This document shows positions 1 to 51,099 of a stretch of DNA of 64,000 bases, one piece after another (positions within the stretch are counted from its first letter, which is position 1; every line of letters starts with the position of its first letter). The notes beneath the pieces are model-generated. The model searched no databases. It was not told where the DNA came from and saw nothing but the letters and a program-made list of their open reading frames with translations. Both the position numbers and the translations under genes were made by a program. This DNA is from Argiope bruennichi (lineage: Eukaryota): positions 54,630,922 through 54,694,921 of the forward strand of contig NC_079163.1 in the NCBI RefSeq assembly GCF_947563725.1, in the 5' to 3' direction.

Positions 1-1765
1 ATATCTGAGTGTATCTTGGTTCCTACTGGATGGATCGTAAAACTTCTCGAACTTCCCAATATGATCCATTTTGTCGCCAAGCCGCCAAATGATCGCCAAG
101 TCTGTCGCCAAGCTCTGAGTTCATTGAGCTCAACACGCACAGGACAGATCGTACAATGGTCTTTCTTACGATGACTCTATTCGTGATGGGTAGCAAAATT
201 ACAGATTTGTAACAATATTTATTCACTTCTATTACTGAAAAAACTTTTGAAAAATAAACGCATCAATATATAGATAGACCCTTAGTCTATTTCACACAAA
301 TCATTAAAAATATAATGAATCTCTTTTTCAGTTCAATAATTAATATTTGTAACTCATTTTATGAGAATCATAAAAAAAAGTAAATAGATATAACCTTCGA
401 AATTTCTTCCCAAATAAAAGCACCAATTATTTTCACAGATGTCTACTATTATTTAAATGGTAACAAATACAGTGACATTTATTTTATTCATCAAAACGGT
501 GCAGAACATCTATTAATTACATTTTTGTCATATTTGTTCCTTTTTCTATTTAAAAAAAATATAGACATCTTGAGTTATTTCATATTGAAGAAGGAAAATC
601 CAGTATTTCGAAGATTTTTCATAATTAAGAAGAAGTATTTTAAAATTTATTAGTTCTCTGATATTTATCCAAAAGTTTTATTATTTAAAAAAATTCATTG
701 TTTCAAAAAATTCATAATTAATAATGACACGTCTGTTTTCTTTCTCGGAGTAATGTTTATCTTGTTTTTAAAGGGAACTGACTAATCCGTTTATATTCTT
801 CCACGTATAAAAATTAAAATTTCGCAGTTTTAAAAATATCTAATCAACATCTGTAGAAAATATTTTTTAAAAATAATAATTGGAAAGTATCTATCGTGAT
901 AAAAATAACATGGACAGTAGCGATTAAAAAATACAGAGTGCATTCAAAAATACGAAACATTATAACAAATATTCTATTTTTCATCGTCTATACATTTGTC
1001 AATGTTTTAAAAATATGCTTTGTGGATTAAAAAGATCCAAAAATAATTTTTTCGTCAACAGTCTTAATGCACTTGCGTTTTAGTGGCTTTCTTATTAATT
1101 CACTTAATATTAAAATAAAAATTTATTGATGCATAACTCGGGTGGAATCGAATATGAAATAGAAAGTTAGCTTTGTAGATGTTTTCAATAAAGAAATCCA
1201 ATAAAAAAAATTTTCATTGTCACTTTTTCAAGTATTTGCTATTTCATTCGATCTGGTTCATAGTTGTACAGACAGAATTTTGAAATCGATTTTTCACTCC
1301 CTGTTAGGCTATAGTTTTGAATTTTCTTATGCGTTCTTGATAAAAGTACACTATTTCAATTTTTTTAGAACTTTTTTGTCAGATAATTTATGAATTTGTT
1401 TAAATTTTAATTCCATACTAGTGGAATTAAATAATTGGTAATGAATTTGAAAAAAGAAATTTGAAATCGCATAATATTTATACTAAATTTAAATTAAATG
1501 TAGGAAATAATTTTTAAACATTTTATTTTTTTTATTGCACAGTAAAAGTGAGATTTAAAAAACTGTTTTTTTATTTATCTTATTTATTACGTCATTACAC
1601 CAAAAATTCAATATGAATTCAATTTGAATAAACAATTCAACTTTCTGAACATTTTCAAAGAAAAGGGTTTTTCCCAAGTATACACCAAGTTATAAATTAT
1701 TATTATTATTTGAAGAATGCAAAGCTACACAAAAACTATTTTTAAAAAGTGAAATGATTCCTTAA

Positions 1766-2068
1766 CCGTTTCTAGGGCCGTGGGAAGTATGCTTCCCACC
1801 AAATTTATCAATCTTTGTATGAAATTATGTAGGTTAGCATAAGTTCTGACAAATTTTTTTAGTAAGTCAGAAACTTAGATGCTTCAGTTCTTTATCTCAG
1901 ACAAAATGATGTGTCTTGATTTGTTACTTAATTATTAATTAACCAAATTAATTAATTAATCAAATTAAATTTATCTAATAAGCTAAATGAATCCCTTTTC
2001 TTATTCTAATTTCAAGCCTAAAAATATTTTAACATAATATGACTATAAAAAAATTGCTCTTTAAAGGG
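1766..2068 (+). mobile_element. piggyBac-like MITE (non-autonomous, TTAA target, termini CCGTTTCTAGGGCC ... GCTCTTTAAAGGG), copy 1
   Basis: TTAA sits at 1762-1765 immediately 5' of CCGTTTCTAGGG. The 3' end is ...CTTTAAAGGG followed by TGAA, a degenerate TTAA. About 300 bp, AT-rich, non-coding. It is homologous over its full length to the minus-strand copies at 29019-29344 and 29349-29615. The terminal CCCTAGAAA-type motif matches the piggyBac terminal inverted repeat (TIR) start. Confidence 0.6.
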
Positions 2069-2145
2069 TGAAACTATGATCAAACAATACTGGTAATATT
2101 TCAGAAATCATTTTTTTTCATAAAGTCACATTTTTCCATCAGTGC

Positions 2146-3675: not shown

Positions 3676-4287
3676 TCTTCTTGTGTACAGCCGACTACCC
3701 CTCCACCACTGAACGTAGCAGTATCGACAGGATTTGTCGTGGCCGACTGCTATCTTTAACATTGTCCATCTTTACATTGACCGATTTGTCAAACTGACAT
3801 TTTCTTCGAGGTAATTGGCCACAAAGTGGTCAATTACTGTCCTTCTATAAAACAAGGAACAGGCCGTCACTAAGAGAAAATCTCCGCGAAATTCTAAATA
3901 TTTCTTCAAATTCTCGTTTCACAACAACTGAAATCCGGACACTTTCAAGCTCTCAAACAGTTAATAAAAACTGACAATTTTTAATATCTTCAGAGTTTTA
4001 AGATTACCTGGTATCATCAGTACTGTACTTAAGTCATTATTTTCAACTTTCAGATTTTTTCTTAACTCCAAGATTTCTATGCATTCCTTTAAATAGTGGT
4101 AAATAGTACCGATTCCTCCACAAATGCATTTATTTTCCTGTATTCTTCCAAATTTTTGGAAATATACAGGAACTCTCCCATGTCCTGATATAATCTGGAT
4201 TACCAGTGGATGGTATCTTCTTATGTTTATTTCTGGATTAGAAATAAAGTCGAAAGTTACTCTTCCTTTTCTGGACATATATCATAA
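3676..4287 (-). mobile_element. 5'-truncated non-LTR retrotransposon (LINE) fragment, 3' UTR plus ORF2 C-terminus, flanked by candidate 17-18 bp direct repeats
   Basis: It contains the RT C-terminal remnant at 3961-4278. Near-identical direct repeats GCAAAGTGGGCA(T/A)TGCGC lie at 3658-3675 and 4293-4310, bracketing the fragment as expected for a target-site duplication (TSD). Confidence 0.45.
3961..4278 (-). pseudogene. non-LTR retrotransposon ORF2 C-terminal domain remnant
   Basis: The translation ...IISGHGRVPVYFQKFGRIQENKCICGGIGTIYHYLKECIEILELRKNLK matches the conserved LINE ORF2 3'-terminal motif, tGHGxfxxYLxrFgxxxxxxCxCGxxxxTxxHxLxEC followed by R..L. Confidence 0.65.
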
Positions 4288-4627
4288 GCAAAGTGGGCAA
4301 TGCGCGAAATCACGAATTCAGTACTTTCATAGCAAAAACTGAAAACGGAACTTAGTTTCTGGATGCCTGGTGTATAATATTGTCATAAAGTTTTGAAGAT
4401 TATTTGAAATTAAAAATATTATTTTCAAAGGAACAGAAAGCTGCTTTTATTCTTTTTTTGTCGAGAAGCCATCCAAATAAACCTTGGTGAAATTAGAACT
4501 GTTTCCGCCATCTCGAAGGAAATTTGGACCATGTGAATAAGTCGGGAAAGGTAGTGATTATGCATGTAATTTTTTTCTTCTACGTCTTACATTAAAATTT
4601 GATGATATATGCTAAAATAGGAAGTGT

Positions 4628-4928
4628 CATTATTATGCACGCGGCGATTTTTGTCATTATTATGTGCACGGCGATTTTTGTCATTATTATGTATACGGCG
4701 ATTTTTGTCATTATTATGTGCACGGCGATTTTTGTCATTATTATGTACACGGCGAGTTTTGTCATTATTATGTATACTGCGATTTTTGTCATTATTATGT
4801 TCACGGCGATTTTTGTCATTATTATGTATACGGCGATTTTTGTCATTATTCGATTGTCATTATTATGTACACGGCGATTTTTGTCATTATTATGTATACG
4901 GCGATTTTTGTCATTATTATGTACACAA
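4628..4928. repeat. 27-bp minisatellite, about 11 copies (unit CATTATTATGTRCACGGCGATTTTTGT)
   Basis: Units were counted directly. One truncated unit lies at 4851-4863. All listed ORFs at 4592-5017 are artefacts of this repeat. Confidence 0.9.
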
Positions 4929-5543
4929 GATTTTTTTTAAAAAGCGAGATTTGTGCGACCACATATCACCATGAACATGTGAACATAAAATGTCACTTTA
5001 ACAATTTTCTATGTTAGCTCTATTGCAGTTCATCAACACTACAAGTATAATTCTAGGCTATGATTAATAGGCAATCTACATAGCAAAGTCTGGTACATTT
5101 TAATGCAAATAGAGAACAAAATAAGAAAACTGTAAGGCATGTTTAAAAGTAGATGTTTTTAAAGAAATAATAATTTTAATATAGATACAGCAAAATAATG
5201 AATTAACACCTATGAAACTCTACAAAAGTTTATTACGGAAATGAAAACAGTATTTGACTCCGCTTATTTAATGAAATTTCATTTATGTCAAAAAAAATTA
5301 TTCATACCTAAATATAATAATAAAATAAATGTTAGTAAATAACTTAGAGAAAATATTATTAAAAAAATTGAAAGCTTTTATTATGTTAAAAAAATTGTGT
5401 CAACGATTATGCTTGGTTTAATTTCATTCAAATAAAATTCAATCTTTACATTTTTAATAGTATTTAGTTTCATTAAAGAAAAAAAAGATTTATTTTTAAA
5501 TATTAATAACAAAGAAAGTCGTTTAATATTTTTCAAGGCACAA

Positions 5544-6049: not shown

Positions 6050-6665
6050 GTAGTTGAATATACCAAAATATTATAACTTTTTTTAATAATAAAGTAACTT
6101 AAAATGCGGAAATTTAACTATTTACACCGTCGTAAACTCGTTTCTTAATGAACTCGTTAATGTAGCTAAACTTAAGATAGTAACCATCTTCATTTTGTAC
6201 CATTGTTTACAAATATAATAAAGCTTTGGCTACAATAATTTCCAAGATAGCAGATGTGAAAAGGCCCAAAGAGCTCTTCACACCAACTTAACTCGTAAGT
6301 ACCTTAATGTTTTACTAGGCTATACACTCGTTAATTTTGAATGTCTTCGCACTCTTTCAGGATGAGTGCTCTAAAAGGCTTACTGTTAATGGATAATTTG
6401 AGCATCTGCATTTGGTCAGTGAATGCATCTCCTTTAGGAAGTTCTTAAGCATGGTCATTTGTACTAAAATGATTCTATCTTTAAATGATGCCGATAATAT
6501 TTCTTATTCGAAATGCAGGTCTTATTTTGAACTAGTAGTGGATCATGAGTAGCTTTTCCTTCCTTAGATTTAGAACTTCGAAATTCTTAAATAACACTGC
6601 TGTTGAAATTCGTAAATTTTGCAAAAAGGAAAAGAAATGTTAGCATCTGAGCTCTGCAAAGTATT
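6050..6665 (+). repeat. dispersed segmental repeat of about 600 bp, copy 1 (partner at 8110-8715)
   Basis: It aligns co-linearly with 8110-8715. Identity is about 80-88% in the flanks, with a near-identical core of about 110 bp at 6346-6457. Confidence 0.75.
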
Positions 6666-8109: not shown

Positions 8110-8715
8110 TGTAGTTGAACATAGAAAGGTATTTTTTAATGATACATTTACTTAAAATGCTGAAATTCAACAATTTGAACCGTTCAAAACCGGTTTCTTA
8201 ATGAATTCGTTAGTGTTGTTACATTCCATCCTCAGTTTCTGCCATTGTTTACGAATACAATAAAGTCTTCGTTACTATAATTTCCAGAACGGTACATGTA
8301 AAATGGCCCAACGAGCTCTTCACACCAACTTTAACTCGTAAGTGCCTTAATGTTTTAGGAGGCTATACACTCGTTAGTTTTGACATTCCAGCACTCTTTC
8401 AGGATGAGTGCTCTAAAAGGCTTACTGTTAATGGATAATTTGAGCATCTGCATTTGGTCAGTGAATGCATCTCCCTTAGGAAGTTCTTAAGCACAGTCAT
8501 TTGTGCTAAAATGATCTCATCTTTAAATGATGCTGATAATATTTCTTATTCGAAATGGAGTTCTTATTTCGAACTAGTAATGGAATCATGAATGGCTTCC
8601 CTTCCTTAGATTTAGAACTCCGAACTTCTTAAATAATGTTGATGATGAAATGCAGATGAAATTCGTGAATTTTCCAAGCAGGGAAATAAATGTTAAAATC
8701 TCAACTCTACACTGA
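8110..8715 (+). repeat. dispersed segmental repeat of about 600 bp, copy 2
   Basis: See the copy at 6050-6665. The conserved core is at 8389-8500. Confidence 0.75.
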
Positions 8716-9380
8716 ATGATTGTTTCTTTTTAAAGTTAAATAAAATAAATCTTTATTTTATTATCAATCCATTTTATTATCACGTGTAATGATCATTAAT
8801 CGTCATATTATTCTATAATTAACTTTAAAGTCAAGAAAATATAAATGATGTACATATGCGAGATAACAATGTTTAAAATAAATTTTAAAGATTTTGTTTT
8901 TTCCAGGGAGAAAATTTATAATAAAATTATATATTTTAAATGTTAAATGGTATTTTTTTCCTTACTTTATTATTGTTTTTTTAAATGTCTTCGAACTAAT
9001 ATAAGTGTGGTTCTTTTTTACCCAGAGATTTTACCCCAAACTTCGAATTTCTTATCAGACGAAATGCATCTAAATTGCATAAATGTTATAACAATATCAA
9101 GAAAATTTGAAATTTAATTACAAAAAGACAAAAAAATGTTGGTTTTTTCGTAGGACAAATTTCGTAGCCTACGACATGCATATATATTCTACACGTTTTG
9201 TAACCATGTAAAGAAAATTTTAAATTTAGTTTTAAAAAACTGTTTATTATTTTCTGGGGAAAATCATTTTAAAATTGTTTATTTTTGATGGCTGCATTGT
9301 ATTTGATGCTTACTTTAAATTATTAATAAAATCTTGAGTCTATCCATTTTACTGGCATTTAAAACCTCAAAGCAACTCAA

Positions 9381-11215
9381 AAAATTATGATGGATGAAAC
9401 CCGGCATATGGTTTCATAACCATTACTGTAGATGTGCATCAACATTTGGACCGAATCCATCACAGGTGCGATTTTCTGTCAATATGCCTAACATGTGTAT
9501 ATGAAAAGGGCGAATCCAAAACACAAGCAAAAAGTATGATGGATGAAACCCGGCATATGGTTTCATAACCATTACTGTAGATGTGCATCAACTTTTGGAC
9601 CGAATCCATCACAAGTGCGATTTTCTGTCAATATGCCTAACATGTGTATATGAAAAGGGCGAATCCATCACAAGTGTGATTTTCTGTCAATATGCCTAAC
9701 ATGTGTATATGAAAAGGGCGAATCCAAAACACAAGCAAAAAGTATGATGGATGAAACCCGGCATATGGTTTCATAACCATTACTGTAGATGTGCATCAAC
9801 TTTTGGACCGAATCCATCACAAGTGTGATTTTCTGTCAATATGCCTAACATGTGTATATGAAAAGGGCGAATCCAAAACACAAGCAAAAAGTATGATGGA
9901 TGAAACCCGGCATATGGTTTCATAACCATTACTGTAGATGTGCATCAACTTTTGGACCGAATCCATCACAAGTGTGATTTTCTGTCAATATGCCTAACAT
10001 GTGTATATGAAAAGGGCGAATCCAAAACACAAGCAAAAAGTATGATGGATGAAACCCGGCATATGGTTTCATAACCATTACTGTAGATGTGCATCAACAT
10101 TTGGACCGAATCCATCACAAGTGTGATTTTCTGTCAATATGCCTAACATGTGTATATGAAAAGGGCGAATCCAAAACACAAGCAAAAAGTATGATGGATG
10201 AAACCCGGCATATGGTTTCATAACCATTACTGTAGATGTGCATCAACTTTTGGACCGAATCCATCACAAGTGTGATTTTCTGTCAATATGCCTAACATGT
10301 GTATATGAAAAGGGCGAATCCAAAACACAAGCAAAAAGTATGATGGATGAAACCCGGCATATGGTTTCATAACCATTACTGTAGATGTGCATCAACTTTT
10401 GGACCGAATCCATCACAAGTGTGATTTTCTGTCAATATGCCTAACATGTGTATATGAAAAGGGCGAATCCAAAACACAAGCAAAAAGTATGATGGATGAA
10501 ACCCGGCATATGGTTTCATAACCATTACTGTAGATGTGCATCAACTTTTGGACCGAATCCATCACAAGTGTGATTTTCTGTCAATATGCCTAACATGTGT
10601 ATATGAAAAGGGCGAATCCAAAACACAAGCAAAAAGTATGATGGATGAAACCCGGCATATGGTTTCATAACCATTACTGTAGATGTGCATCAACATTTGG
10701 ACCGAATCCATCACAAGTGTGATTTTCTGTCAATATGCCTAACATGTGTATATGAAAAGGGCGAATCCAAAACACAAGCAAAAAGTATGATGGATGAAAC
10801 CCGGCATATGGTTTCATAACCATTACTGTAGATGTGCATCAACTTTTGGACCGAATCCATCACAAGTGTGATTTTCTGTCAATATGCCTAACATGTGTAT
10901 ATGAAAAGGGCGAATCCAAAACACAAGCAAAAAGTATGATGGATGAAACCCGGCATATGGTTTCATAACCATTACTGTAGATGTGCATCAACTTTTGGAC
11001 CGAATCCATCACAAATGTGATTTTCTGTCAATATGCCTAACATGTGTATATGAAAAGGGCGAATCCAAAACACAAGCAAAAAGTATGATGGATGAAACCC
11101 GGCATATGGTTTCATAACCATTACTGTAGATGTGCATCAACATTTGGACCAAATCCATCACAGGTGCGATTTTTTGTCGATATGTCTAACATGTGTATGT
11201 GAAAAGGCGAATCCA
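9381..11215. repeat. 149-bp satellite array, about 12 units
   Basis: The period was measured from recurring landmarks: AAAGTATGAT starts at 9739, 9888 and 10037, giving 149 bp. Units alternate between CAACATTTGG and CAACTTTTGG variants. One unit, at about 9600-9720, carries an internal 58-bp duplication. The edge units are more diverged. Confidence 0.9.
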
Positions 11216-11379
11216 AAACAGAACGAGTGTATTGAGTTTAGAATGCTTTATGATTCCTTGGCGCCAAAAATATTAATTTCGGAATCATGCCTATCTCTGA
11301 ACCCAATAACACAAAAGCTCAATGAACTTGAAAGATAAACTATATACGGGCTTTTTACTTAAAAAATTTGGACTTCTTC

Positions 11380-11940
11380 TATCAAATTTTTGACGAAATG
11401 CTTCAGTGAAAAGTGTGCATATCTATTCTTGAGTGTATGCGTTTGTTAAATGAAAAATATTAAAAGCTGGATGGACAGCATTTATCTTGCAGTTTCATCA
11501 TTAGAATTGTTTATCTACATCAAGCTTTGGATCAAATTCATCAATAGGTAACTGTATCTCTATCTGTATATTTGAGTGTATATGAACAGGACAGCTCCTA
11601 AACTTTAAAGAGCTAGAGAAATTACACATGTGAGTTTATCACTAGAATGCCAGATTTTATTACGTGTTGGACCTAATCCGTCATATGAATGATTTTACGT
11701 TGATATATCAATGCATACGCATGTGATCGTTAGAACTCAAAAATCCATCCTTTTAACTCTAAAACTCTTAATACACCAAAGGAGTGATTTTACGTTGATA
11801 TATCAATTTATATGCATGTGATCGAGAGAACTCAAAAATCCATCCTCCTAACTCTAAAACTCCTAATCCACCAAGGGAGTGATTTAACGTTGATATATCA
11901 ATTCATATGCATGTGATTGAGAGAATTCAAAAACGCTAGA
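11380..11940. repeat. older, diverged relatives of the 149-bp satellite monomer, including 3 tandem units of about 104 bp at 11685-11935
   Basis: TTGGACCTAATCCGTCATATGAATGATTTTACGTTGATATATCAATGCATACGCATGTGA aligns with the satellite core TTGGACCGAATCCATCACAAGTGTGATTTTCTGTCAATATGCCTAACATGTGTATATGA at about 70% identity. A similar homologous piece lies at 11505-11585. Confidence 0.6.
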
Positions 11941-13062
11941 TGTATGAAGTTTGATATGTGAAATTTGCCACAAAACTTTTAATCAAAGTGAATTTTAGGT
12001 CAAATTCGATCAACTACAAGAGATATTATTTCAAAATTTACTGCACTACACAACGAAACTAAACACAAAACCTACCATATTATGTAAGTATACTAAAAAT
12101 ATCTAGTAATAGATATACAAGTTTGTTTTTTACAGTTTCATTTGAAAATAAAATTGATAATTATGCTTGTATATTATTAAGAAAATATCAGTTTATTGGA
12201 AGGAAAATTTTGTTTTTAAGTTAAAATAGCATTTAACATTTAAACAGAAATTTGAGATCTTTTACATCATAAGAATTTCTAGAGACAGATAAAATTCATT
12301 TCAAATTTATCCTAAAATTATTTTCTTGAAAAGGAACAGCAGACCAGGGAAGACGATACAAAGGTAATCAGTAAGGTAAATCCAATTTTATGCTAAAATC
12401 TCTTCCTCGTATCTTCAGAAATCAAATTTTGATAAAAATTCTCTTGTTTATACCAGTTCAGGATCTTTTCTCAATCATGCAACGAAAATCTAAAATCCTA
12501 CATAGTATTTTGCAGTTTTTCCTTTCCTTTGAAACTCCGTAGGATTTTCTGAAAAGTTCAGTAAAGGCAAAGCTGAATGAAAATGCTGCAGTTGATTTTT
12601 CAGAAAAAAAGGGGGATTCAGCGAAGAAAAGTGTTTAATAATTTAGACGTGCATTAGCATCATTCCTGGCATAAGCCCGAACTTCAAAAATGTACTGGAG
12701 AATTCCTCTTCAGGGAGAAAATAGAAGGTTAAAACAAATTCTCTATGAATGAAACTTCCCTTAATCAATATTCAGTTGGGTTTCAATTGAACAAAATTTC
12801 CTCGCTCCTTTTAAGAACTTCGTTATAAAGATATTCTTCTAATAAAGAAATTTGTAAATAAATAGAGAATGCAAAAGTAGAGTTGTTTTTTTTAGGATTA
12901 AAAAAGTTTTTGTCAATAATAACCAACATGTTGAATACAAATAAACTTTATGAATTAATTACAAAATATAAGTTTGCCGAAATATTGTAAAAATCAATAA
13001 AAAGCCCTCTAGTAACAATTTTGATAACAAATTTTTTTTCTCTGTTAAATGCCTTTCATGTC

Positions 13063-16084: not shown

Positions 16085-16575
16085 TAAATTAACCAGTTAG
16101 TTGTTTCGAACTTTTCGGAAAATGTGTATTTAAACTGCGTCGCAAAAATTTAGCGATGACAAGCATACTCGTCAAACACAGAGTATGTGTAATATGAGAT
16201 AAATTTTATTTTTTCTATTTCAATAATTGCGTTTATTTATTAACTTAAACTAATATACATTTTTTTGCATATAAATGAAAAGAAACAAAAATTTAATTAA
16301 TTATTTTAATTTTCTCTTAGAGAATGGTTAGCGTAATAGAGAGAGCAAAGCATAATAATCTTTTATTTGTTCCTTTGATTTCAACTTGGCCTCAAAATAT
16401 TTTAAACATCTTGAAATTTACGAATATGTTTGAGTTTTTACTAAAACTTTAATTCAAACTGCAAATTGTCGCTACTTATTACTCCTGACGAATAAACTCG
16501 TCATGACACAAAGTGTTGCACTTTTTCCAAGACGAATATACTCGTCAAAAACAATTAACTTGTTAAAGACTGTAG
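16085..16575 (-). mobile_element. second copy of the AACCAGTTAAC-TIR MITE, split by an AT-rich internal insertion of about 300 bp
   Basis: The reverse complement of 16468-16575 matches 13063-13165. The reverse complement of 16085-16160 matches 13170-13235. The two halves are separated by 16160-16468. Confidence 0.45.
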
Positions 16576-22182: not shown

Positions 22183-22326
22183 TCCTCCCTCTGGTGTGGT
22201 GTGAAAGTTTGGAGAGTGGGTGCTAGCTAAGTTGTCGTCCTCATCATCTGACCGTGGTTCAGAATTACGAGGTCCGTCCCAAAATATCCCTATTATTGCT
22301 TTAAAAATGGACATTAATATAACTGA
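22183..22326 (+). mobile_element. tRNA-derived SINE family 1, 5'-truncated copy (3' half only)
   Basis: It aligns to 32680-32810 of the full copy: CTGGTGTGGTGTGAAAGTTTGGAGAGTGGGTGCTAGCT...GGTCCGTCCCAAAATATCCCTATTATTGCTTTAAAAATGGACATTAATATAACTGAA. Confidence 0.7.
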
Positions 22327-23397
22327 ATTGACTGCATTCATAAGCTGATTTGTTGCAATTATTCCTTTTTATTCGATTTTTTGATATGATAAACCGCCTG
22401 TTTTTAGTTCAGTTATGCAGTATCTTTCGTAGCTTCTATTTCTTTTATTTATTTTTATCATATTTACAAATTCTACATCTATAAAATATATATACTAAAT
22501 TATCTTTATGACAAGTTTTCAGTATTACGTTATTATCAGTTTTTAGTAACTTGTAAGATTTTTTTTTTATTTCGCATCTGCTTTTATAAAAGTTTTATCA
22601 TTATTCCACCGTGACAATGTTTAACGGCATTAAAATGTTGCGTAAAAGGGACTCTGCAACACAAAATTATGCAAAAGTATACAAAACTAGAAAGATTTAA
22701 GACAGAGAATTTTGAAAGAAAGTCATTGTAGAGTGATGTTTTTCAAAATGGCTTCAAGGAAAGGTTTTCGCTTATACTAATATTGTCTCAAGATATGCTA
22801 TATATTTGTTAACAATATTGTGCTATTATTTATTTGTTAATTTTAATATATCATACATTATAACAACAAATTCAAAATGGAAAACTTTACACTTGACGTG
22901 CCTTAAAAATTTGTTTTGAAACCCTGCTATCATATTCTTATTGAGTTAAGATATTTTGATTTTTAATATAAAACTTATATTACTTGTAATGTACACCGGT
23001 TCTCTCGCTTTCAATGTATTAAATCTCACCTAATTTATTCATTAAATGTGCATCTCCTATCATTAACTTATACAACTTCCACATACTTTTACAAATCAAA
23101 TTTCATTATGAAACTACGGCATTTTTTAATGAATAATCTTTTTCATTGAATGAAATATTTTTGAGAAACCATGTAAGAAAATTATCTTTTGTTGAAATTC
23201 ATCCAAGATCAACCAGACGTCCTTTATTCTGGCCTTTTAAAATGGAATTAATAAATATGAAGTATGGAATATTTAAATATCATTTCAAAGATGCCTACGG
23301 TGATAAAAAGAAAACGTAGAATTTAACTGAAATTTACGAAACTTTTCAAAATATGTAAATGTATAATTTATGAGGATAGAGAAAAAAGAATTAAATT

Positions 23398-24550
23398 TTA
23401 GGTGATGCAGTATGTAGCTTAAAAGTTTTCGTAATATATTTACAATCAAATGTTTTAAATCAAAATATTAATCTTGAATAATTAAAATATACTAATTTCC
23501 GAATTTTGTTCACTTTCTCACGTTTCCAATAATTATTTTACCATCAAACTTTCAGAAAACCATATTTCTGCCACAGAAGGTAGCAGAAAATATTTCAAAA
23601 TGCTTAGTTTTTACTTCAAATTATTAAATTTTAGGTGATGTAGTATGTAGCTTAAAAGTTTTCGAAATATATTTACAATCAAATGTTTTAAATTAAAATA
23701 TTAATCCTGAATAATTAAAATATACTAATTTCCGAATTTTGGTCACTTTCTCACGTTTCCAATAATTATTTTACCATCAAACTTTCAGAAAACCATATTT
23801 CTGCCACAGAAGGTAGCAGAAAATATTTCAAAATGCTTAGTTTTTACTTCAAATTATTAAATTTTAGGTGATGTAGTATGTAGCTTAAAAGTTTTCGAAA
23901 TATATTTACAAGCAAATGTTTTAAATCAATATATTAATCTTGAATAATTAAAATATACTAATTTCCGAATTTTGGTCACTTTCTCACGTTTCCAATAATT
24001 ATTTTACCATCAAACTTTCAGAAAACCATATTTCTGCCACAGAAGGTAGCAGAAAATATTTCAAAATGTTTAGTTTTTACTTCAAATTATTAAATTTTAG
24101 GTGATGTAGTATGTAGCTTAAAAGTTTTCGTAATATATTTACAATCAAATGTTTTAAATCAAAATATTAATCTTGAATAATTAAAATATACAAATTTCCG
24201 AATTTTGGTCACGTTCTCACGTTTCCAATAATTATTTTACCATCAAACTTTCAGAAAACCATATTTCTGCCACAGAAGGTAGCAGAAAATATTTCAAAAT
24301 GTTTAGTTTTTACTTCAAATTATTAAATTTTAGGTGATGTAGTATGTAGCTTAAAAGTTTTCGTAATATATTTACAATCAAATGTTTTAAATCAAAATAT
24401 TAATCTTGAATAATTAAAATATACAAATTTCCGAATTTTGGTCACGTTCTCACGTTTCCAATAATTATTTTACCATCAAACTTTCAGAAAACCATATTTC
24501 TGCCACAGAAGGTAGCAGAAAATATTTCAAAATGTTTAGTTTTTACTTCA
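23398..24550. repeat. 233-bp tandem repeat, about 4.9 copies
   Basis: The landmark TTAGGTGATG recurs at 23398, 23631, 23864, 24097 and 24330, an exact 233-bp period. Units are more than 95% identical. Confidence 0.9.
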
Positions 24551-27500
24551 CCCTGTAAATGTTTATAAAGCTATTTCAGCGAGATAGATGACGGTCTGTT
24601 TTTCTCTTCCATATTTTTGGAGGCTAATGTGTTTGTTTTACTACAGCATTGAATTATATTATGCTACTCTATTATGCTGTTATAGGGTAGCAGATATACT
24701 ATATAACAGTTAATTTCGTTTTTAAAGTTATTTGACTTATTTGCAAATATTGCATCTAAATAAGGATTTTTGAAAAGCAGCACTAAATGGATTAATGGAT
24801 CTCGCATCTTTATTGCCGTAAGATTCGTAGCAAATAAAGAACAGTTAAAAATGTTTTATATTTCTCTCTCGCATCATCATCGAAAATGATGAAAATCCAG
24901 TAAATCCAGTAAATTGCGATAAATTAATTAAATTTTTAATGGAATACAATTTCTTTAATTGATACAGTACATTAAAAATTTAGAAATATGAAGGGAGAAT
25001 AATGAAATCAATTTATTTGTAGTATACTTTGACACAGTTTTCAAATAGTAACGTCATATATTTTTTTTTAATCTTTCGACTGTAAGTTGCGCTAAGGATT
25101 TCAAGTTTCATACTGGCATACTGATCGCATATCACATGAGTTAATTAACCTCCTTTGTTCTGATAATTAATGGAATGAAATATTATTAAACTGATTCATT
25201 ATTGATTGATTGTTACAATAAGACATACATAGATTAATTGGATTAAATGAAAATCACAATGTTGAACCCCAAAAAATAAGGAATGAAAGGATTTCTATTA
25301 AAAAAAATAATTGCTGTATTGTGCTTCTTTAAATAAAACCTACGATTTGAAAGAAAACTTTAAAAAATTTTTTTTAAAAACTTACAGTATTGTTTCAAAA
25401 ATTATCCTAGGCAATGTATTATGGTTATTTCACAGATTGAAAAGGAAATTTATTTTTACATTCTTTGTTTCTTGTCTTCGTATCTAAAATTTACTCAAAA
25501 CTAGTTTATTCTTTCTTAAAAACTAGTGTTTCAATTCCAAAAAGCATTTAAGATCCTTACAGCAGTATAAATTTCCTCATCAAAAATAAAAAATAAAAAT
25601 ACAAAAAAGGAAGAAATGGAAAGAATTCTAAAATAATGGAATAAAAAAAATAATAAAAAATAAACAAATGAAACATTATTAAATTGTATTCGCCTGTCTA
25701 ATTTTCTTTTTTCAGATCCATCTTCCATTCCCAAACAGTCACGATTCTGAATTCTCAGATTTCAGTTATTTCTAACTACATAAGTTAAGGAAAGTGGGTA
25801 AAATATTTTTCGATTTAAAACGAAAAGCGGAACGATGCATGAAGAAAGAAGAAGAAAAAAGGGCAAAAAGGGCCCCCTTTTTTTCGATTATTACAGAATC
25901 CAATTCAGCGTAACCAACGAAAGGGACTCATAGCGCATAAACCCGCTACAGAAACTTCTCTCGGGCCATTAGTTCCGCTGGCAGAAAACTCTTCCGTCAT
26001 AATTCTATTAAGGTCTTTTCACGAAAGACTGTGAGTTGGATATGAAAAGTTGGAACCCAACTTGATTCTTAAAACACTAAGGAGCCGGGCAATGGAAACA
26101 GATGCTACAGGGAATCTGCTTTGGATTCCGCCAAGCAAAAGAGTTATTCTTCAATCTCTAATTCATTCATACAACAATGATGAAATAAAAATAACAAATT
26201 TAATTCTGCTGCAGAAAAATACTTGTTTAAATTCGTTTATGACAAAGGAATATTCTTACAATAGATGGGAATTGTCTAGTATCTGTAGCTTGCGAATTGT
26301 TTGTTGAGACAGTTTGTTGCATTTGTATTTTAAAGAGAAAGGAACGGTTGTTGATTCATCGAATCAGTTGTTGTATACTGTCTTGTAACAAAATGCTGGG
26401 AAATACTGATTGCTGCTTTATTTTGCATACCTTAAATAAAAGCACAAAAAAATGGAAAAATATTTTTCTATGCTTGAATTCTTTCATAAAAAAACTGTTG
26501 AAACAAAGATAAGTTTATTTTAGTATGGGCATAAACAAGTATATGCTGAAAAAATATTCTCAGAAAATCTAGTAATGTTCGAGTACTTATAATTCATTTG
26601 GTGAAGAACAATTTACAGCGTTTTTAATCGAACGAATAAAGGCAGCTAGTTAATTTTTCAAACCAATCATAATACAGTATCTTATTATAAAATATCGGAA
26701 AATATCAATTGTTTTATTTTGCATACATTTAGTACCAGCAAAAAATTTCGAGTTAATATCAATTGTTTTATTTTGCATACATTTAGTACCAGCAAAAAAT
26801 TTCGAGTTACAATGCAAAGTCTTGAATTCTTTTCTATAAAACTGATAAACACAAAATAAATTTAAACCTGCATGGGCAAATACTTGTTTAATTTATTCAT
26901 ATAGTTAATGAATTCATTCTGATGTCTTTGAGGTACAAATTGTTTATTGAACAAAAATTTACTGGATTGATAATTGCACTATTTTCGTCAGAGAGAGTAA
27001 AAGATTATTATTATTGAAATTCATTTATTATACACTGTTCCTTTTAGAAGCCCGAGTCTACCACTTTTCTACAGTTCTACCACGCTAAGGAGATACATGA
27101 TCTGTCTCTGTCAAGATATGTCTTGCTAAGATCTGTCTCTGGTTATCAATTCGCGGCAAAATTCATTTTATAGACAGCATGGCTATGCTTTGTGATAAAC
27201 CTTGCATTATAGATCTTCTGTTACTGCACGCAATGCGTGCCACTCAGGTAGCTCCTCTTTCGTTCTTAAGCAATTTCCCGCACACGATTCCACTTTTACT
27301 TCGCATTTTTCAAGTAAGCCTTCATTCTTTGATAAAATTGAGCCATTATTGTATGAATAGGCCAAATAGATTTGCTTTTTCAAGATCTGATCTTAGATCA
27401 ACCCTGCTGAAATACATAATTATACCTTTTTCTCAAGTTACTGAAATACCTTGTTTTCTCATAAACAAGCAAATTATAAGGTAGGTTTATTGATGTTTCT

Positions 27501-29018
27501 GACATAGAGAAAGCTTTTTAACAATAAATCCATTTTATAATGTCGGCGCATGGATTGCTGGGTCAAGTCGAGATTGAAATATGTGTGGTATTTCTAATAT
27601 TTTGGTCACACATTGTAATACTTTGATGAATTTTTGCTAAAATTACTTAGGTATACAATATTTTATGGGAATCGCATCTCCCTAAAAAGTGTACATTTAT
27701 TTCCTCTGTACGATACTTGTTGTTTCGAATAACCTCTTTAAAACTGAAACATGGCTATGGGTACCTTATCATGTCCTTCTATCTCCTTTTCATTTCTTGG
27801 CGCAGCATAGCCATGTCTGGCTTTTGCGCCATTAAAATCCAATCAATCAATCAATCTCCTTTTCCGTTCCACACGTTGTATGACAGACTGTGTCGGAGAG
27901 AAGAATTATTGAGTTCTCGAAAAAAAATGGAATGAAAAAATAGAATAAATTAAATTTTCTCATAAGAAATTAATAAAAAATTAATACAATTGTACCATAT
28001 TCAAGTCTAAAATCAACAAGTCTTTTGTATAGCCCAAGATATATGCATGTGCCAGCTTTTTAATATTTTGAAAATTAGCACCTCAATTGGAATAATATTA
28101 TTAATGCTAATATATATATTTACATTCAAAGCAATTATTAGTATTTGGAAATGCGGCGTTAAATATCAGTTTCACATACATTTTAATTCATTCTGCTGAT
28201 AAAATAATTATAATTATTTTGTCGACAGGTAGCATTTCATTTTTTTTCTAACAAAAACAATTTAGCCCTAATTTTATATTTCAAGCAATTTCTTTCACAG
28301 TAAAGCAAATCATCTATGCATACTGGCCTTGCTAAGTCATATTTCATTATCTCTTCTATGGTATATACATCTTCAATAACTGCAGAATTTTTATTTATTT
28401 CAATTTAATGGCTCGTATTCAGAAGTTGCAAATGCATCTAGAAAAAAATATCAATTTTTAAAAGCATGGATACATTACACATGTAACGGAAATAAGTTTT
28501 TTGCTGTCTCTCATATAATCTGTGCAAAAATAATTTGAAGTTTAAAAGCCAGCGAATGTATTTTAATAACAATCATTTCAGTTTTCTTCTAGGATAGCGC
28601 AAATCGAAAATAAAAAAGAAATATTTGTAAATTTTGGTTTTATTTTTATATATGGCTTTATACAAAGTTGAAGAAAATCAAATGTAGTTGCAAATATCTC
28701 TAAATGCGAGTAGCAAAATATCTCTAAATACGAGTAGTAAAATATCTCTAAAAAAATCTCTTCCCTGAGGAATTTGAACCAAAATTTTCAAAAATATTTT
28801 CAGTTTTTCTCTACGTACTACATAAAAAAAATTTCGCTAATGTAGCTCACTGAATTTTTCGTTATCGTGTTCACTTACCCTTGGGTTGGCAGAGAGACCA
28901 CAGTTTTAGTATCTATGAAGGTTTAAAATGTGGTCTCGAAACCCAATTATTGGAAGATTGCAACACTATTATTATATTAGTCGGCTGTTATTCATGCTAA
29001 TGGGAGTTTTTACTTTAA

Positions 29019-29344
29019 CCCTTTAAAGGGCCATTTTTTTCTAGTAATGGTATTTTAACCCTTTAATGGGCCATTTTTTTCTAGTCATATTGTGTTAAAA
29101 TATTTTTAGGCTTAAAATTAGAATAAGAAAAGGGATTCATTTAGCTTATTAGATAAACTTAATTTGGTTAATTAATAATTAAGTAACAAATCAAGACACA
29201 TAATTTTGATTGAGATAAAGAACTGAAGCATTTAAGTTTCTGTCTTTCTAAAAAAATTTATCTGAACTTATGCCAACCTACATAAATTCATACAAAGATT
29301 GATAAATTTGGTGGGAAGCATACCTCCCACGGCCTTAGAAAGGG
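29019..29344 (-). mobile_element. piggyBac-like MITE copy 2, with TTAA on both flanks and a tandemly duplicated terminal 40 bp
   Basis: TTAA lies at 29015-29018 and 29345-29348. The termini are CCCTTTAAAGGGCC... and ...GGCCTTAGAAAGGG. It is the reverse complement of copy 1 (1766-2068) at about 90% identity. The 40-bp terminal segment at 29015-29054 is repeated at 29055-29094. Confidence 0.65.
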
Positions 29345-29348
29345 TTAA

Positions 29349-29615
29349 AATTTCAGAATTCAGAGACTTAAGAAAAGGAATTCATTCAATTTATTACATA
29401 AATATAATTTGATTCATTAATTAATTTTGTTAATTAATAATATAATAAATCAAGATGCATTATTTTGTTTGAGATAAGAAGCTGGGGCATCCAAGTTTCT
29501 GCTTTATTGAAAATTTGTGAGAATATCTGCAAGACTACATAACTGCATACAAAGATTGATGAATTTGGTGGGAATTTAAGAAACCCAGTATGTTACTGTC
29601 ATCCCTAGAAAAGGG
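29349..29615 (-). mobile_element. piggyBac-like MITE copy 3, adjacent to copy 2, one end truncated, carrying an internal insertion of about 28 bp
   Basis: The right terminus is ...CCCTAGAAAAGGG at 29603-29615, followed by TTGA. The internal sequence aligns to copy 2 at about 80%. Confidence 0.55.
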
Positions 29616-32541
29616 TTGACAGTAACATAAGCATTAATTGTTTTAATATCAGTAACGAGGGGAAAACGCTTTCAAGAATAGCAATGACAAATAAATGTTT
29701 TTGACGAAATGAGGAATAAAGATAATTGGGATGACTTCCACAGTACCAATTATTATTTTTTCAAAATATAAAAGATTAATACAACTAAAAAATGCATTAA
29801 AGTTTTACTTCTTTAACTTGCAAAAGCCCAATATGTGCTTTAATATAACATTATAAATACGAAATTGGGTTTTCATTTTAATTTTCTCGTATTAAAACAG
29901 AACTACTTCGGTTCTCATTCCAGTGATCACTGGTAGGACAGAAATACTTCAGTTACAACGACAAATGGAATAAAATCCAAAAACAAATATGGCAAATCAG
30001 CTCGGGAATATTGAAATCTCAACATTTGTGGTTTTCATAAGTGTTCTTTGAAAATTTTCGTTTAGGATTATAAAAAAAATGCGGAAAAAGAGAAAATGCA
30101 TGGATCTGCCACATCATGGTAAACAAGTTCTGAAACAGTCATATTGATATTATCCATTGAACATTTCATTATCAAGGATGAAAATTTAAGGCATGTGACT
30201 TAAGTTCAAGAGGACTTTTTTGAAAAACGTCCAAAAATAGTTATATTTTTGAATATTTGTATAAAAAAAAATTGTAAAAACGTCTATGAAACCAAAATGC
30301 ACCAATAAAGAGGCAAATGTTTATGGAAAACGAAAAAAAAATTATTCTTTTGCAAAAAAGAGGTCTGGAGCAAATATCTTCTAGTTTAGAAATTTATCAA
30401 ATGGTTTGCTTAAAATTTTGCAGATAATTTAAGAAATAGATTATCTAGTTCCTTAGCTAAAAACTAAGCATTATTGTTATCTATTCTCTAAACAGTGGAG
30501 TTTGACTGATAAATAACAAGAAATTTTCAATTTTTTTATCACATTATGAAGCATTAAAACAATTATATTTCTAAATAAATAGATTACTTATTCTCTAGTT
30601 CAGGAACTGCAGAACATATTGAGAAATTATTATACCAAATTGGAACAAAAATATACATTACATTTTAATTTGATAAAATTCCTTCAAAGATTAGAATTTG
30701 AGAAAAAAGCATCTAAAACTGTAAAAAAAAGCATTAAAAAAGTAAGGAAATGCAAATATAAAAATCAGTGTAACCTCCCAAAAAATAGACTTAAAAACAA
30801 AACTCTAACGGTTTTATAAAGAAATCTGTTCAAACATTAAGAATAGCAAATTAAAAAACAATTGATAAATTCGCAAAAAATCGACTTTTTGCCGTAGTCA
30901 CTAGCCTTAATTATGTAGAAATTATTTCTAAGCCATATTCATCTAATCCCAAGATATAGTTTTCGTATACCTTAAGAAAAGGTTGATTACCAATACCGTA
31001 GATCATTTCCGTTTTTGAAATAAGCTATAATCAGCAAAGAATATGGGAGTTAAAATAAATACTAAGATTGAAGAGATAAGAATTAGTTGTGTTGATTCAT
31101 GCAAATAATTAATTTATAATATTAAACTGATTTAGTTTCGCATTAAAATTCTTTTCATTTTGCAGACTTTACTTCTACAGACATCAGAAGTAAACGCTAA
31201 ATTTCGGCAAAAAATTGATACAAATTCGGCCTTGATTTGATACCTTAATTTTATTTCATTGTAAATATGGTTTCTTGAAATAAATTTGGAAGAAAGATAG
31301 ATATATTCCACTGTTTGATTTGTTTTTAAAAAGATTAAATTTTATTCCATCTTCAAATTAATAGTCAGAAAAATATGTTATAAAACAAATGAGTCGGTTT
31401 GCAAATTGCGAAAGAATCCCTAGTTCACATGTTTATTAATTAGAAATAACGATTTAGATTATAGCGTCATTATTCTAGAGATAAAAATATTAATTCCTCG
31501 AAATATTAAAAGCATAGATTTTTTAACAGAAACGGAAAGTTAGAAGTCATTTCCTCAAAGCAAACACGCCAGTAATGAATAATTAAAATAGTTGATAAAA
31601 TGAAAGATTGCTTCTAAGAACGGTTTTTATAAAACTTAATACATCTGCCTATATAAAATAAACACCTTTAAATTGCGTAAAATGAGATTTTCAAAATCCA
31701 CATTAAAATCAAAATTTAAAAGATGCTAAGACACATAAATGCATATTTTTCAAATTAATTGAATTTCGTTGAAAAAATGAGCTTTAATGTTAATTAATTT
31801 TTACCACTTTTCATCTTTTACAATATTGAAAATTATTCTATTAAGTTTCTAGAAATATTTCTATTCTTGAATTCTCTCTAGCTAGTAAAACGAGGTAATA
31901 AAATTTAAGAATGTTACTGAATCAAAAGTTAAAATGTAAAAGGACATCTTAGCTTGCATAACTTAAGTGCATGGAATTTTTAAAAATATCACTTTTTTAC
32001 ACTAAATAACTTTATTTGAACATACACAATGCATTTTTGCTGGCAAACAGCCCAGATTTAATAATGCCTCGAGCAGCATCTAAGATATCTCAGGCAATTT
32101 AAAAGAAATATTCTGTAGCTTTCTAATTTGCTTATCTCATAGTAAAATTCACAAGACTTTATTACATATCATGTATTGCAACGATTCTTCATTTTTTATT
32201 ACTTATGTCACAAAAATGTAAATTGCTTGTGTGAAACATTTTAAAGTTAGCATTTCATAGGCGATAACAAAAATTTTGAATAAAAAAACAACCTTCTTGT
32301 CAGGTCATTTATTTTAAGTTTAAAGTTCTTCCAATTTAAAAGATACCTAAATTAAAACGACTTATTCAGTTAGTAAGAAACATAATTTTTTTAACACAAT
32401 GAGGGGAATACTTGCTTCCTTCAATTCTTTAATATTATTTAGAATTATTGAATACAAAATTTGAGTATAATACAAAAAAAAAAATATTCTTTGAAAATCT
32501 CGTTCATCAATTTAAATAGCTATTTTCCACCTTACCACCTA

Positions 32542-32810
32542 GGGCCGCAGTGGTCTGGTGGTAAGGTTTCGGCTTCGGAACCGGAGAGTTTCAGGTACGA
32601 GACCCGATTCCACCGAAGAACCGTCCTGTAAGCGGGTCTGGTGCACGTTCGTCGGGGTCAAACGACCTCCCACCGGTGTGGTGTGGAAGTTTGGAAAGGG
32701 GTTGCAAGCTCAGGTGTCGTCCTCGTTATCTGACTGCGGTTCAAAATTACAAGGTCCGTCCCAAAATAGCCCTAGTGTTGTTTTAAAACGGGATGTTAAT
32801 ATAACTAAAC
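32542..32810 (+). mobile_element. tRNA-derived SINE family 1, full-length reference copy of about 270 bp
   Basis: The tRNA-like head GGGCCGCAGTGGTCTGGTGGTAAGG...GGTACGAGACCCGATTCC has an A box (TGGTCTGGTGG) and a B box (GGTACGAGACC). The conserved body is ...GGTGTGGTGTGGAAGTTTGG...GGTCCGTCCCAAAATAGCCCTAG... and the 3' end is GTTAATATAACTAAA. At least 8 other copies occur in the window. Confidence 0.8.
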
Positions 32811-32847
32811 ATAGGCTCCTAAAATTCCGATATCGTAGAGCAAACCT

Positions 32848-32982
32848 CCTGCCTTTGGTGTGGCGCACAAGTTTGGACAGGGAAGCGATAGCTTAAGTGT
32901 ATTCCTCTTCATCTGACCTAAGGCTCAAAATTAAAGACTCTTGTGTTGCTTCAGAATAAGGCGATAATATAATTAAATTCCT
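32848..32982 (+). mobile_element. SINE family 1, partial copy (3' half), lying 40 bp downstream of the full copy
   Basis: CCTCCTGCCTTTGGTGTGGCGCACAAGTTTGGACAGGG...CTCAAAATTAAAGACTC...ATAATATAATTAAAT aligns to the SINE 3' half. Confidence 0.65.
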
Positions 32983-35092: not shown

Positions 35093-35346
35093 TGCAGGAT
35101 TCCAAGTTCGAGACCCGATTCCATTAAAGATCCGTCGCGTATGCAGCCCTATTGCACGTTAAATCTGGCGTTGAGTGCCAAATGTTCTTCCGTTGGTGTG
35201 GTGCGGAAATTTGAAGAAGTGGTGCCAGCTCAGGTATCTTCCTCTTCATTTGACCAGGGTTCGAAATTTCAAGGTCCATTCCAAAATAGCCCTTATATTG
35301 CTTCCTAACGGAATGTTAATATAACTAAACTAAACTAAACTAAACT
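35093..35346 (+). mobile_element. SINE family 1 copy, 5'-truncated by about 40 bp, with an (AAACT)4 tail
   Basis: ...TCCAAGTTCGAGACCCGATTCCATTAAAGATCCGTCGCGTATGCAG...GGTCCATTCCAAAATAGCCCTTAT...GTTAATATAACTAAACTAAACTAAACTAAACTG. Confidence 0.75.
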
Positions 35347-39311: not shown

Positions 39312-39765
39312 ATTAGACTATTAAAAATGGGGGGAAATATTTATCAAAAATTTGGACTCCAAAACAAAATCGTAAAATCATCAAACGCTAATAATAATAC
39401 GCTACGAAAATTTTTATTACATCTAATACAAATTTAAATTTTTGGGAGTTTTATTTAACATTATTTTTCTTGTGACAATATCTTTACAATATTGTTCTCG
39501 CACATTCACGGTTGTTTTTAACCTCCAAATTTTTCGGGAAATTGTTTTATTTTTAGGACACTAGAAGTTTAGCACTAAAACTTTTTCTTTTCTGTTTTTC
39601 GGTCTTTAGTTGGCTTCATAAATCGTTACACATATCTGCAAAAAATAGCTCTATCACGTTTTAAAGGAGAAATGATTTATGGAAAAAGTTAAAATTTCTT
39701 ATAGTTGTATCTTTTTTTATTCAAAATTTCTTTCATTTTTCTTCCGGCGAACTTATAAAGATTGT

Positions 39766-40035
39766 AGGAACCTGATGGCAGTGTTTCGACTTCAGACTTG
39801 GAGGGCTCCAAGTTCAAAACCGAACTTTACTTAAGAATCTACCTGTAGGCTGTTCTAATGTGCATTAATTCCATCGAGGATAAATGATCATCCGCTCGTG
39901 TGTTGTGGAAATTCAGAAAAGGAGATGCCAGCTGAGATATTGTTCTTATCTCATCATTGTTCAAAATTACAAGGTTAGTCACAAAATAATCATTGTATTA
40001 CTTCAAAATGATATGTTATATACCGAAAAACTAAT
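39766..40035 (+). mobile_element. SINE family 1, older diverged full-length copy
   Basis: CCTGATGGCAGTGTTTCGACTTCAGACTTGGAGGGCTCCAAGTTCAAAACCGAAC...GTGTGTTGTGGAAATTCAGAAAAGGAGATGCCAGCTGAG...TTCAAAATTACAAGGTTAGTCACAAAATAATCATTGTATTACTTCAAAATGATATGTTATATA is co-linear with the reference copy at about 70% identity. Confidence 0.6.
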
Positions 40036-44974: not shown

Positions 44975-45284
44975 TGTATAACACTGTACTCAGTTCAATC
45001 CCGTTTCAAAGTAGCACTAGGGCTATTTTGGAACCAATTTATGATGAGAACGACGCCTGAGCTGGCACCCTCTCTTTTAACATCCGCACCACCCACAACC
45101 ACCGACAGATGGTGCCTATCTGTGGTTGTGGCACCACACCAGTGGGATGACATTTGGCCCCGACGGATTTAATATGCACAATGCCCGCTTACACGACTGT
45201 ACTTCGATGGATTCGGGGTTCGAACCTGAAACTCTAAGTGTTCCGAAACCGAGACCTTATAACCAGGCCACCGAAACCCTCGCC
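44975..45284 (-). mobile_element. SINE family 1, full-length copy on the minus strand
   Basis: The reverse complement gives GGCGAGGGTTTCGGTGGCCTGGTTATAAGGTCTCGGTTTCGGAACACTTAGAGTTTCAGGTTCGAACCCCGAATCCATCGAAG...GGTGCCAGCTCAGGCGTCGTTCTCATCATAAATTGGTTCCAAAATAGCCCTAGTGCTACT. Confidence 0.75.
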
Positions 45285-49180: not shown

Positions 49181-49721
49181 ATCCATTTGGATACAAAATC
49201 CCTTTGTGTTGGTTCTTTCTTCTGCTGGTTTCCAAACCTTCTTTGGAAGGCAATGGTAAATTTCAATCTAGCCATCCAAACAGCACAGATCAATTCTTGT
49301 GTAGTGAAAGAAAAGGTTCCGAGCAATTTTGAAAAGGAAGTTATTTTTAAGTTAAACAGCAAAAGGGGAAAACATTTAAAACGTCATAACTGTGCAATGC
49401 TTCTGTATATGCAACAAAAGTTGTTAAAATATATTTCATCCCTTTAACAACGAAACATTTGTTGCTTGTTGTTAAATAATAAACATATGATCCGTCGTTG
49501 GAAGGTTAAAGCTTTATTTCTCATTTCTGTGTGTACGTTGAATAAAACCGAACACAAAAGGAATCATTATTTAACTCCACAAACTCCAAATGTATGCTAA
49601 AAATTACTTATCAAAATCCGATTTATTACTAGAAGAAAAAATAAATGTTATTTAGTTAACTAAATAAAACCTACAACTGCTTTATAAAAAGTTTTGGGTC
49701 CAAGTACAAGAAAGTACCATC

Positions 49722-49871
<150 letters not shown>

Positions 49872-50519: not shown

Positions 50520-50720
50520 GAAAATGTCCGTCCGTCCTTCTTTCTGTGACAAATATAACTCAAAAACGCTTTGATCTAGAGGGTTGAAATTTGGTATACG
50601 GTCTTTGCACAAAATATGCAGAATCAATTTTTGAAAAACTGTGTTTGCCCGGCAATTCGAATATAAATTAACACGATAATTACAAAAATGAAGGCATGGT
50701 ATATGTAGTAAAAACGTGAA
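50520..50720 (+). repeat. interspersed repeat family D, copy 2
   Basis: See 44085-44480. Confidence 0.5.
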
Positions 50721-51012
50721 ATTAACACCAAAAGTTAATATTTCGTATCTATTGTACGTCAATGCCATGTGAAGCATTCTCTGTTAAAAATGTTAAATTC
50801 ACGCCAAAAGTTAATATTTCGTAACTATTGTACGTCAATGCCATTTGAAGCATTCACTGTTAAAAATCTTAAATTCACGCCAAAAGTTAATATTTCGTAA
50901 CTATTCTACGTTAATGCCATGTGAAGCATTCACTGTTAAAAATCTTAAATTCAAGCCAAAAGTTAATATTTCGTAACTATTCTACGTCAATGCCATGTGA
51001 AGCATTCTCTGT
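50719..51012. repeat. 76-bp minisatellite, about 3.9 copies (unit AAATTCACGCCAAAAGTTAATATTTCGTAACTATTGTACGTCAATGCCATGTGAAGCATTCACTGTTAAAAATCTT)
   Basis: The period was measured as 76 bp: unit starts at 50719 and 50795. Confidence 0.85.
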
Positions 51013-51083
51013 CATGACAAATTTATTAGAGTATGCGAGAAATTTATGGAGAAGCCACTCACTCCCTCTGATTATTTACATGG

Positions 51084-51099
51084 GCGGGGGGGGGGGGGT
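51084..51099. repeat. poly(G)16 homopolymer
   Basis: Read directly. Confidence 0.9.

Follow-up and report, generated by a model that had tools for sequence, protein, structure and literature searches.

Two probable families of miniature, TTAA-flanked piggyBac-type transposons in a 64-kb stretch of the Argiope bruennichi genome

A 64,000-nucleotide stretch of the genome of the spider Argiope bruennichi (RefSeq assembly GCF_947563725.1, contig NC_079163.1, positions 54,630,922–54,694,921 of the forward strand), referred to here as the window, contains short elements that begin and end next to TTAA. An earlier interpretation made from the letters of the DNA, which we call the sequence-only reading, had taken them for a single family of four MITEs (miniature transposable elements with inverted repeats) of the piggyBac superfamily. 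To which superfamily do these elements belong, and do they form one family? Our analysis indicates that the window very probably holds miniature DNA transposons of the piggyBac superfamily that encode nothing, are flanked by TTAA, have terminal repeats of 13–14 bp, and fall into two unrelated families. The four copies of one family are instead three copies of a family A (c1, c2, and c3), two of them nested at one locus, and a singleton of a family B (c4). The characterization of the elements as piggyBac-type, non-autonomous, and TTAA-inserting with CCC...GGG ends is borne out by the nested insertion, the termini, a further copy in Araneus ventricosus, and the misfit to the Kolobok superfamily. 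The comparison outside the window covered 245 kb of A. ventricosus DNA, consisting of loci around genes that match a short interspersed nuclear element (SINE)-like repeat of the window.

Family A is represented in the window by three copies of 286–307 bp, which blastn and a repeat finder place at two loci only. The first copy, c1 (303 bp, plus strand), was delimited by blastn and alignments at 1766–2068, in agreement with the sequence-only reading. It is preceded by TTAA (1762–1765), read directly and also found by a pattern scan, and followed by TGAA (2069–2072), read directly, a degenerate target-site copy with one mismatch to TTAA. Its 5′ end reads CCGTTTCTAGGGCC (1766–1779), and a subterminal hairpin with a perfect 8-bp stem, GTGGGAAG-tatg-CTTCCCAC (1780–1799), lies beside the 5′ repeat. 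The 3′ end reads ...GAGCAATTTTT...CTCTTTAAAGGG, with the terminal repeat at 2055–2068, and an internal TTAA is located 36 bp from it. The consensus ends of the family, CCCTTTCTAGGGCC and CCCTTTAAAGGGCC, are imperfect inverted repeats that match at 12 of 14 positions. In a pattern scan of the window, TTAACCCTT was seen three times against 0.42 expected and AAGGGTTAA twice against 0.43 expected. The copies have no coding capacity (no open reading frame, ORF, longer than about 30 codons in c1), and the termini of c2 pair in a predicted single-strand DNA fold. Global identity is 93% between c1 and c2, 79.5% between c1 and c3, and 77% between c2 and c3. The flanks of different copies have nothing in common beyond chance 11-mers; homology therefore ends exactly at the element termini, as in dispersed elements with sharp ends.

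The second locus carries c3 and c2 on the minus strand, with the complete c2 inside c3. Starting from the 3′ side of c3, it consists of a target-site copy TTAA (29015–29018), the 3′-terminal 36 bp of c3 (CCCTTTAAAGGGCC... when read from the flank; 29019–29054), which are cut off from the rest of c3 by c2, a TTAA that sits at the internal TTAA of c3 and is the first target-site copy of the c2 insertion (29055–29058), c2 itself (286 bp, 29059–29344), the second TTAA copy of the c2 insertion (29345–29348), the remaining 267 bp of c3 (29349–29615) with its interior and its 5′ end CCCTTTTCTAGGG (from the flank), and finally TTGA (29616–29619), read directly, a degenerate target-site copy with one mismatch to TTAA. 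Read from the flanks, the ends of c2 are CCCTTTAATGGGCC (29059–29072) and CCCTTTCTAAGGCC (reverse complement of 29331–29344). What had been described as one copy at 29019–29344 is thus a composite of the 36-bp end of c3, a TTAA, and c2, and the supposed copy at 29349–29615 starting with CCCTTT corresponds to the part of the interrupted c3 that runs through its interior to its far end, where TTGA follows.

Excising c2 together with one TTAA and joining 29019–29054 to 29345–29615 restores an element of 307 bp, and c1 and c2 can be aligned with it from end to end. The TTAA kept in the rebuilt c3 falls in the same alignment column as the single internal TTAA of c1 and c2. The paralogous empty site with a single TTAA, which the sequence-only reading had pointed to as a check, is therefore present, as c1 and c2 carry one TTAA where c3 has c2 between two. 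This filled-versus-empty comparison within the window shows insertion at TTAA and duplication of TTAA. The same layout could in principle have arisen when adjacent copies recombined unequally or were duplicated in tandem, and the window would then offer no direct evidence for TTAA duplication. It is a single case, and coral piggyBac MITEs have been reported to form tandem arrays by slippage. However, the 36-bp piece matches the end of c2 itself at only 30 of 36 positions, and these six differences imply that it is no recent duplicate of c2. In addition, an element of full length and expected size is obtained from the two outer pieces, these pieces are part of the copy that has diverged more, as required of a host, and the junction coincides exactly with the internal TTAA, of which c1 and c2 have just one. 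We regard a recombinational origin as quite improbable and retain the insertion of c2 into c3.

The 5′ end of c3 (region 29575–29632) has a peculiarity of its own. Here, 28 nt stand in place of the subterminal hairpin arm, and 13 of them are an exact reverse complement of the adjoining outside DNA (inner stretch TATGTTACTGTCA, outer TGACAGTAACATA), so that a perfect 13-bp inverted repeat brackets both the terminal repeat of 13 bp and the degenerate TTGA. Chance may account for this, as may template-switch repair or aberrant end processing.

Family A is also present outside the window. A full-length copy of 299 bp is located in A. ventricosus (locus L005, 9480–9778), where it aligned from first base to last with 73–75% identity to the window copies. 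It has TTAA directly on either side, so that a copy elsewhere shows the flanks anticipated from the window. Another A. ventricosus locus (L040) contains one degraded and truncated fragment with unrecognizable ends. With four full copies and one fragment in the roughly 309 kb of spider DNA covered, small size, no coding capacity, and unrelated flanks, family A has the properties by which MITEs are defined. These counts do not establish the high genome-wide copy number suggested by the sequence-only reading. The core pattern of family A had no match in viral contigs, and none in metagenomes when searched as a strict pattern. A relaxed pattern of 24 nt was matched 11 times in metagenomes and 21 times in genomes, always in Pelagibacter-type contigs and limited to those 24 nt, and these matches were dismissed as chance. 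An 11-mer, TCAAACAATAC, found a short way beyond the ends of c1 and of the A. ventricosus copy, was likewise rejected because equally good 11-mers exist between all unrelated flanks. None of the other TTAACCC / GGGTTAA sites of the window (14058, 16685, 36845, 8060, 48415, and 51400) had a partner end, and as many would be expected by chance.

The fourth element, c4, which we assign to family B, is 234 bp long and spans 56079–56312. TTAA is present on its left (56075–56078) and right (56313–56316), and its terminal inverted repeats are CCCTTTGCGGTCG (56079–56091) and CGACTGCAAAGGG (56300–56312); the two ends of the family, CCCTTTGCGGTCG and CCCTTTGCAGTCG, match at 12 of 13 positions. The sequence-only reading was right that a TTAA-flanked inverted-repeat element exists here but put its start 10 bases off, at 56069, and its description as a shorter variant of the others does not hold, because blastn found no similarity of c4 to c1–c3. 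It is the sole family B copy in the window, and no second copy was found in the 245-kb A. ventricosus sample. Family B, known from this single copy, falls short of the copy number of a MITE family. The ends of c4 pair in a predicted DNA fold (z = −4.3).

With only one copy at hand, c4 might be no transposon at all, just two TTAA sites that by chance carry similar inverted 13-mers. Its lack of a second copy in either DNA is in line with this, as is a protein search for other copies, in which the 50-codon ORF of c4 yielded no candidate in predicted proteomes. In contrast, when every TTAA pair was scanned for inverted 14-mers (12/14 match), two matches with at least five G+C were obtained, c4 being prominent, whereas only 0.05 are expected per window in simulated sequence, and c4 starts with CCCTTT in addition. 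Furthermore, A. ventricosus L004 (BGPR01000385.1, 8688–8704) contains a solo piggyBac-type terminus, ...GCGCCGCAAAGGG|TTAA, which has the exact 14-mer TTAA+CCCTTTGCGG in common with the end of c4, in a terminus-like position. Within 8.7 kb of this terminus, neither a partner end nor a transposase-like ORF was present. A chance origin of c4 is accordingly unlikely in our estimation, and we keep c4 as a family B transposon.

A separate candidate element flanked by TTAA lies at 16093–16562. This 470-bp candidate occurs once and has the inverted ends CCAGTTAGTTGTTT and CAAGTTAATTGTTT, which match at 12 of 14 positions.

Both the target sites and the termini bear on the superfamily. Elements of the piggyBac superfamily duplicate TTAA, have terminal repeats of 12–19 bp (mean 14 ± 2), and begin with the hexamer C[C/A/T][C/A/T][T/G/A][T/A/G][T/G/A] or a CC[C/T]T motif. 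In the elements studied here, the 4-bp TTAA duplication is seen in the nested c2 insertion and in the flanks, imperfect terminal repeats of 13–14 bp occur in both families, and the ends are of the CCC...GGG type. The four full-length family A copies have eight flanks, of which six are exact TTAA and two are one base off; at a background TTAA frequency of 1.6% per position, at least six in eight would arise by chance with a probability of about 4e-10. When c4 is included, 8 of the 10 flanks of the five full-length elements are exact TTAA, with the same one-base deviation in the other two. Thus, TTAA on both sides, which had been stated for every copy in the window, holds for c2 and c4 but not for the right flanks of c1 (TGAA) and c3 (TTGA). 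Similarly, CCC ends were found at 9 of 10 termini, all reading CCCTTT, but the 5′ end of c1 reads CCGTTT, which we take as a point mutation. The reported echo of the piggyBac terminal repeat is an artifact of orientation: CCCTAGAAAAGGG (29603–29615) runs inside-out while piggyBac ttaaCCCTAGAAAGATA is written flank-inward, and the c3 end written in that direction is CCCTTTTCTAGGG.

The Kolobok superfamily also makes TTAA-specific 4-bp duplications, and the elements could be MITEs moved by a Kolobok transposase; the target site alone cannot tell the two superfamilies apart because no transposase was found. Kolobok termini, unlike those of piggyBac, are 5′-RR...YY-3′. All ends here are 5′-CC...GG-3′, and CCCTTT agrees with the piggyBac terminal motifs, which makes a Kolobok origin very improbable. 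A second alternative exploits the palindromic nature of TTAA. If the elements were Tc1/mariner-type (Stowaway-like) MITEs of the form ACCC...GGGT with a TA duplication, the nested insertion would be parsed as T-TA-[ACCC...GGGT]-TA-A and the outer T and A of TTAA would be incidental. Genes with a DDE_3 domain are present in the fetched A. ventricosus loci, and Tc1-IS630-Pogo elements are the largest class of DNA transposons in Araneus marmoreus. However, a target of TA only needs neither of these outer bases, and the outermost T on the left or A on the right is present at all 10 positions of the five full-length elements, with a chance probability of about 4e-5 (T and A each about 0.36). This alternative is extremely unlikely, and piggyBac remains the superfamily to which we assign both families.

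In agreement with the sequence-only reading, no piggyBac transposase was detected in the window by Pfam or tblastn. Pfam searches of all window stop-to-stop ORFs of at least 58 amino acids and non-trivial composition returned no family, hence neither a transposase nor a host gene. A tblastn search with the Trichoplusia ni piggyBac transposase, for which an approximate query sequence was used, gave no significant match in either the window or the 245 kb of A. ventricosus DNA; the best match (E = 0.008) was sub-significant and located within the SINE-like repeat. Since no transposase is detectable in either DNA, mobilization would be in trans. Elements of the piggyBac superfamily are documented in the spider Stegodyphus, 58 piggyBac genes have been described in Ectatosticta, and the A. 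marmoreus genome contains 18,855 piggyBac RepeatMasker pieces (0.34% of the genome).

Following the established piggyBac mechanism, we propose that a DDE transposase of the piggyBac family encoded elsewhere in the genome would bind the terminal and subterminal repeats, excise the element, and paste it into TTAA, and that repair of the staggered cut would duplicate the TTAA. The non-coding elements would depend on that enzyme in trans. Family A may have moved in at least two waves, with c3 and the A. ventricosus copy being old (73–80% identity) and c1 and c2 younger (93%). With its CCG end and TGAA flank, c1 is probably an immobile relic today, and the same probably applies to the split c3 with its TTGA flank. 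A bolder extension is that family A represents a long-lived piggyBac MITE lineage of orb-weavers with successive waves, in which the old c3 and A. ventricosus copies were followed by c1 and c2. We consider this unlikely. If true, piggyBac transposase activity would have persisted, or re-entered by horizontal transfer, across copy ages corresponding to 73% to 93% identity, and the 13-bp inverted repeat of c3 could be the footprint of aberrant end processing (hairpin or template-switch repair), not chance.

Several points weigh against the assignment of the two families to piggyBac. An autonomous partner with matching ends was found neither in the window nor in the A. ventricosus DNA covered; the superfamily assignment therefore draws on the target site and the termini alone. 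Two of the 10 flanks (c1 TGAA and c3 TTGA) are not TTAA, and the 5′ CCG of c1 falls outside the published third-position set [C/A/T]. The filled-versus-empty comparison is the only one available and involves paralogs (c1 and c2 against c3), not alleles. Family B consists of one copy, whose mobility is deduced from structure only.

The elements resemble several known systems. Human MER85 and MER75 and mosquito Wuneng-type MITEs are short, non-autonomous, and TTAA-flanked and have been attributed to piggyBac-type transposases; they reside in different hosts and are probably unrelated in sequence. The T. ni piggyBac (IFP2) also inserts into TTAA and has 13-bp CCC...GGG repeats and subterminal repeats near its ends, and its repeat reads CCCTAGAAAGATA from the flank, as compared with CCCTTTCTAGGGCC and CCCTTTAAAGGGCC here. 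However, IFP2 is 2.5 kb long and carries its own transposase, whereas the spider elements encode nothing. The coral CMITE families of Acropora are alike in TTAA duplication, non-coding nature, and 13–14 bp terminal inverted repeats starting with CCCTTT (PMC2872659). CMITE family II (CCCTTTAAGCCCTA) has a start similar to that of family A (CCCTTTAAAGGGCC), and the coral study also describes a MITE inserted in a TTAA inside another repeat, as c2 is in c3 (PMC2872659). In contrast, the coral elements live in a coral host, are about 100 bp long as opposed to 234–307 bp here, and show no similarity past the first 6–9 terminal bases. Coral piggyBac MITEs and their autonomous partners have near-identical repeat starts, e.g., CCCTTTAAGCCCTA and CCCTTTCCCGTCC (PMC2872659). 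Such partners with matching repeats were found in the coral study, whereas none turned up for the spider elements in the DNA covered here.

Beyond annotation, the significance of the two families is small, as animals are well known to carry TTAA-specific piggyBac-type MITEs and piggyBac repeats are routinely counted in papers on spider genomes. The practical gain lies in the exact boundaries of two element families and in a clean case of TTAA duplication within the window. The consensus ends can be used to look for a spider piggyBac transposase that is autonomous and possibly still active, which would be of interest for arachnid transposon tools. The sequences to search for next to TTAA are CCCTTTCTAGGGCC / GGCCCTTTAAAGGG for family A and CCCTTTGCGGTCG for family B.

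The window in which these elements lie is AT-rich, with a G+C content of about 25–36% in 2-kb steps. No long ORF was found in its 64 kb, and Rfam and tRNA scans of the same DNA gave no match. According to the repeat finder, tandem and dispersed repeats are abundant throughout.

The dispersed family of SINE-like repeats used for selecting the A. ventricosus loci is located at 22184–22327, 32541–32809, 35100–35329, 39758–40018, 45041–45235 (minus strand), and 52410–52683. Its translation (32543–32893) matches 22 "hypothetical proteins", all from A. ventricosus, with 47–82% identity, and its DNA is 70–85% identical to the A. ventricosus loci. Because both the translation and the DNA of the repeat match there, these proteins are probably translated repeats and not genes. 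Tc1/mariner-type transposase genes (HTH_Tnp_Tc3_2 and DDE_3 domains) adjoin the SINE-like repeats in A. ventricosus L002 (11631–12542), L003 (4979–6130), and L040 (8622–8870).

Other repeats were also observed. A 106-codon open frame on the minus strand at 3964–4281 (GHGRVPVYFQKFGRIQENKCICGG…HYLKEC) resembles by eye the C-terminal tail of a non-long-terminal-repeat retrotransposon polyprotein and has no Pfam match. A segment of about 460 bp is present twice, at 6079–6542 and 8132–8584, 2.04 kb apart and with 80–94% identity. A satellite array at 9303–11300 consists of at least 13 copies of a 149-bp unit, mostly 99–100% identical. Further tandem repeats are located at 23385–24616, 4598–4962, 50633–51088, 58654–58883, 11674–11958, and about 49700–49870; their units include 233, 27, 76, 24, and 95 bp as well as a long (GT/CA)n tract.

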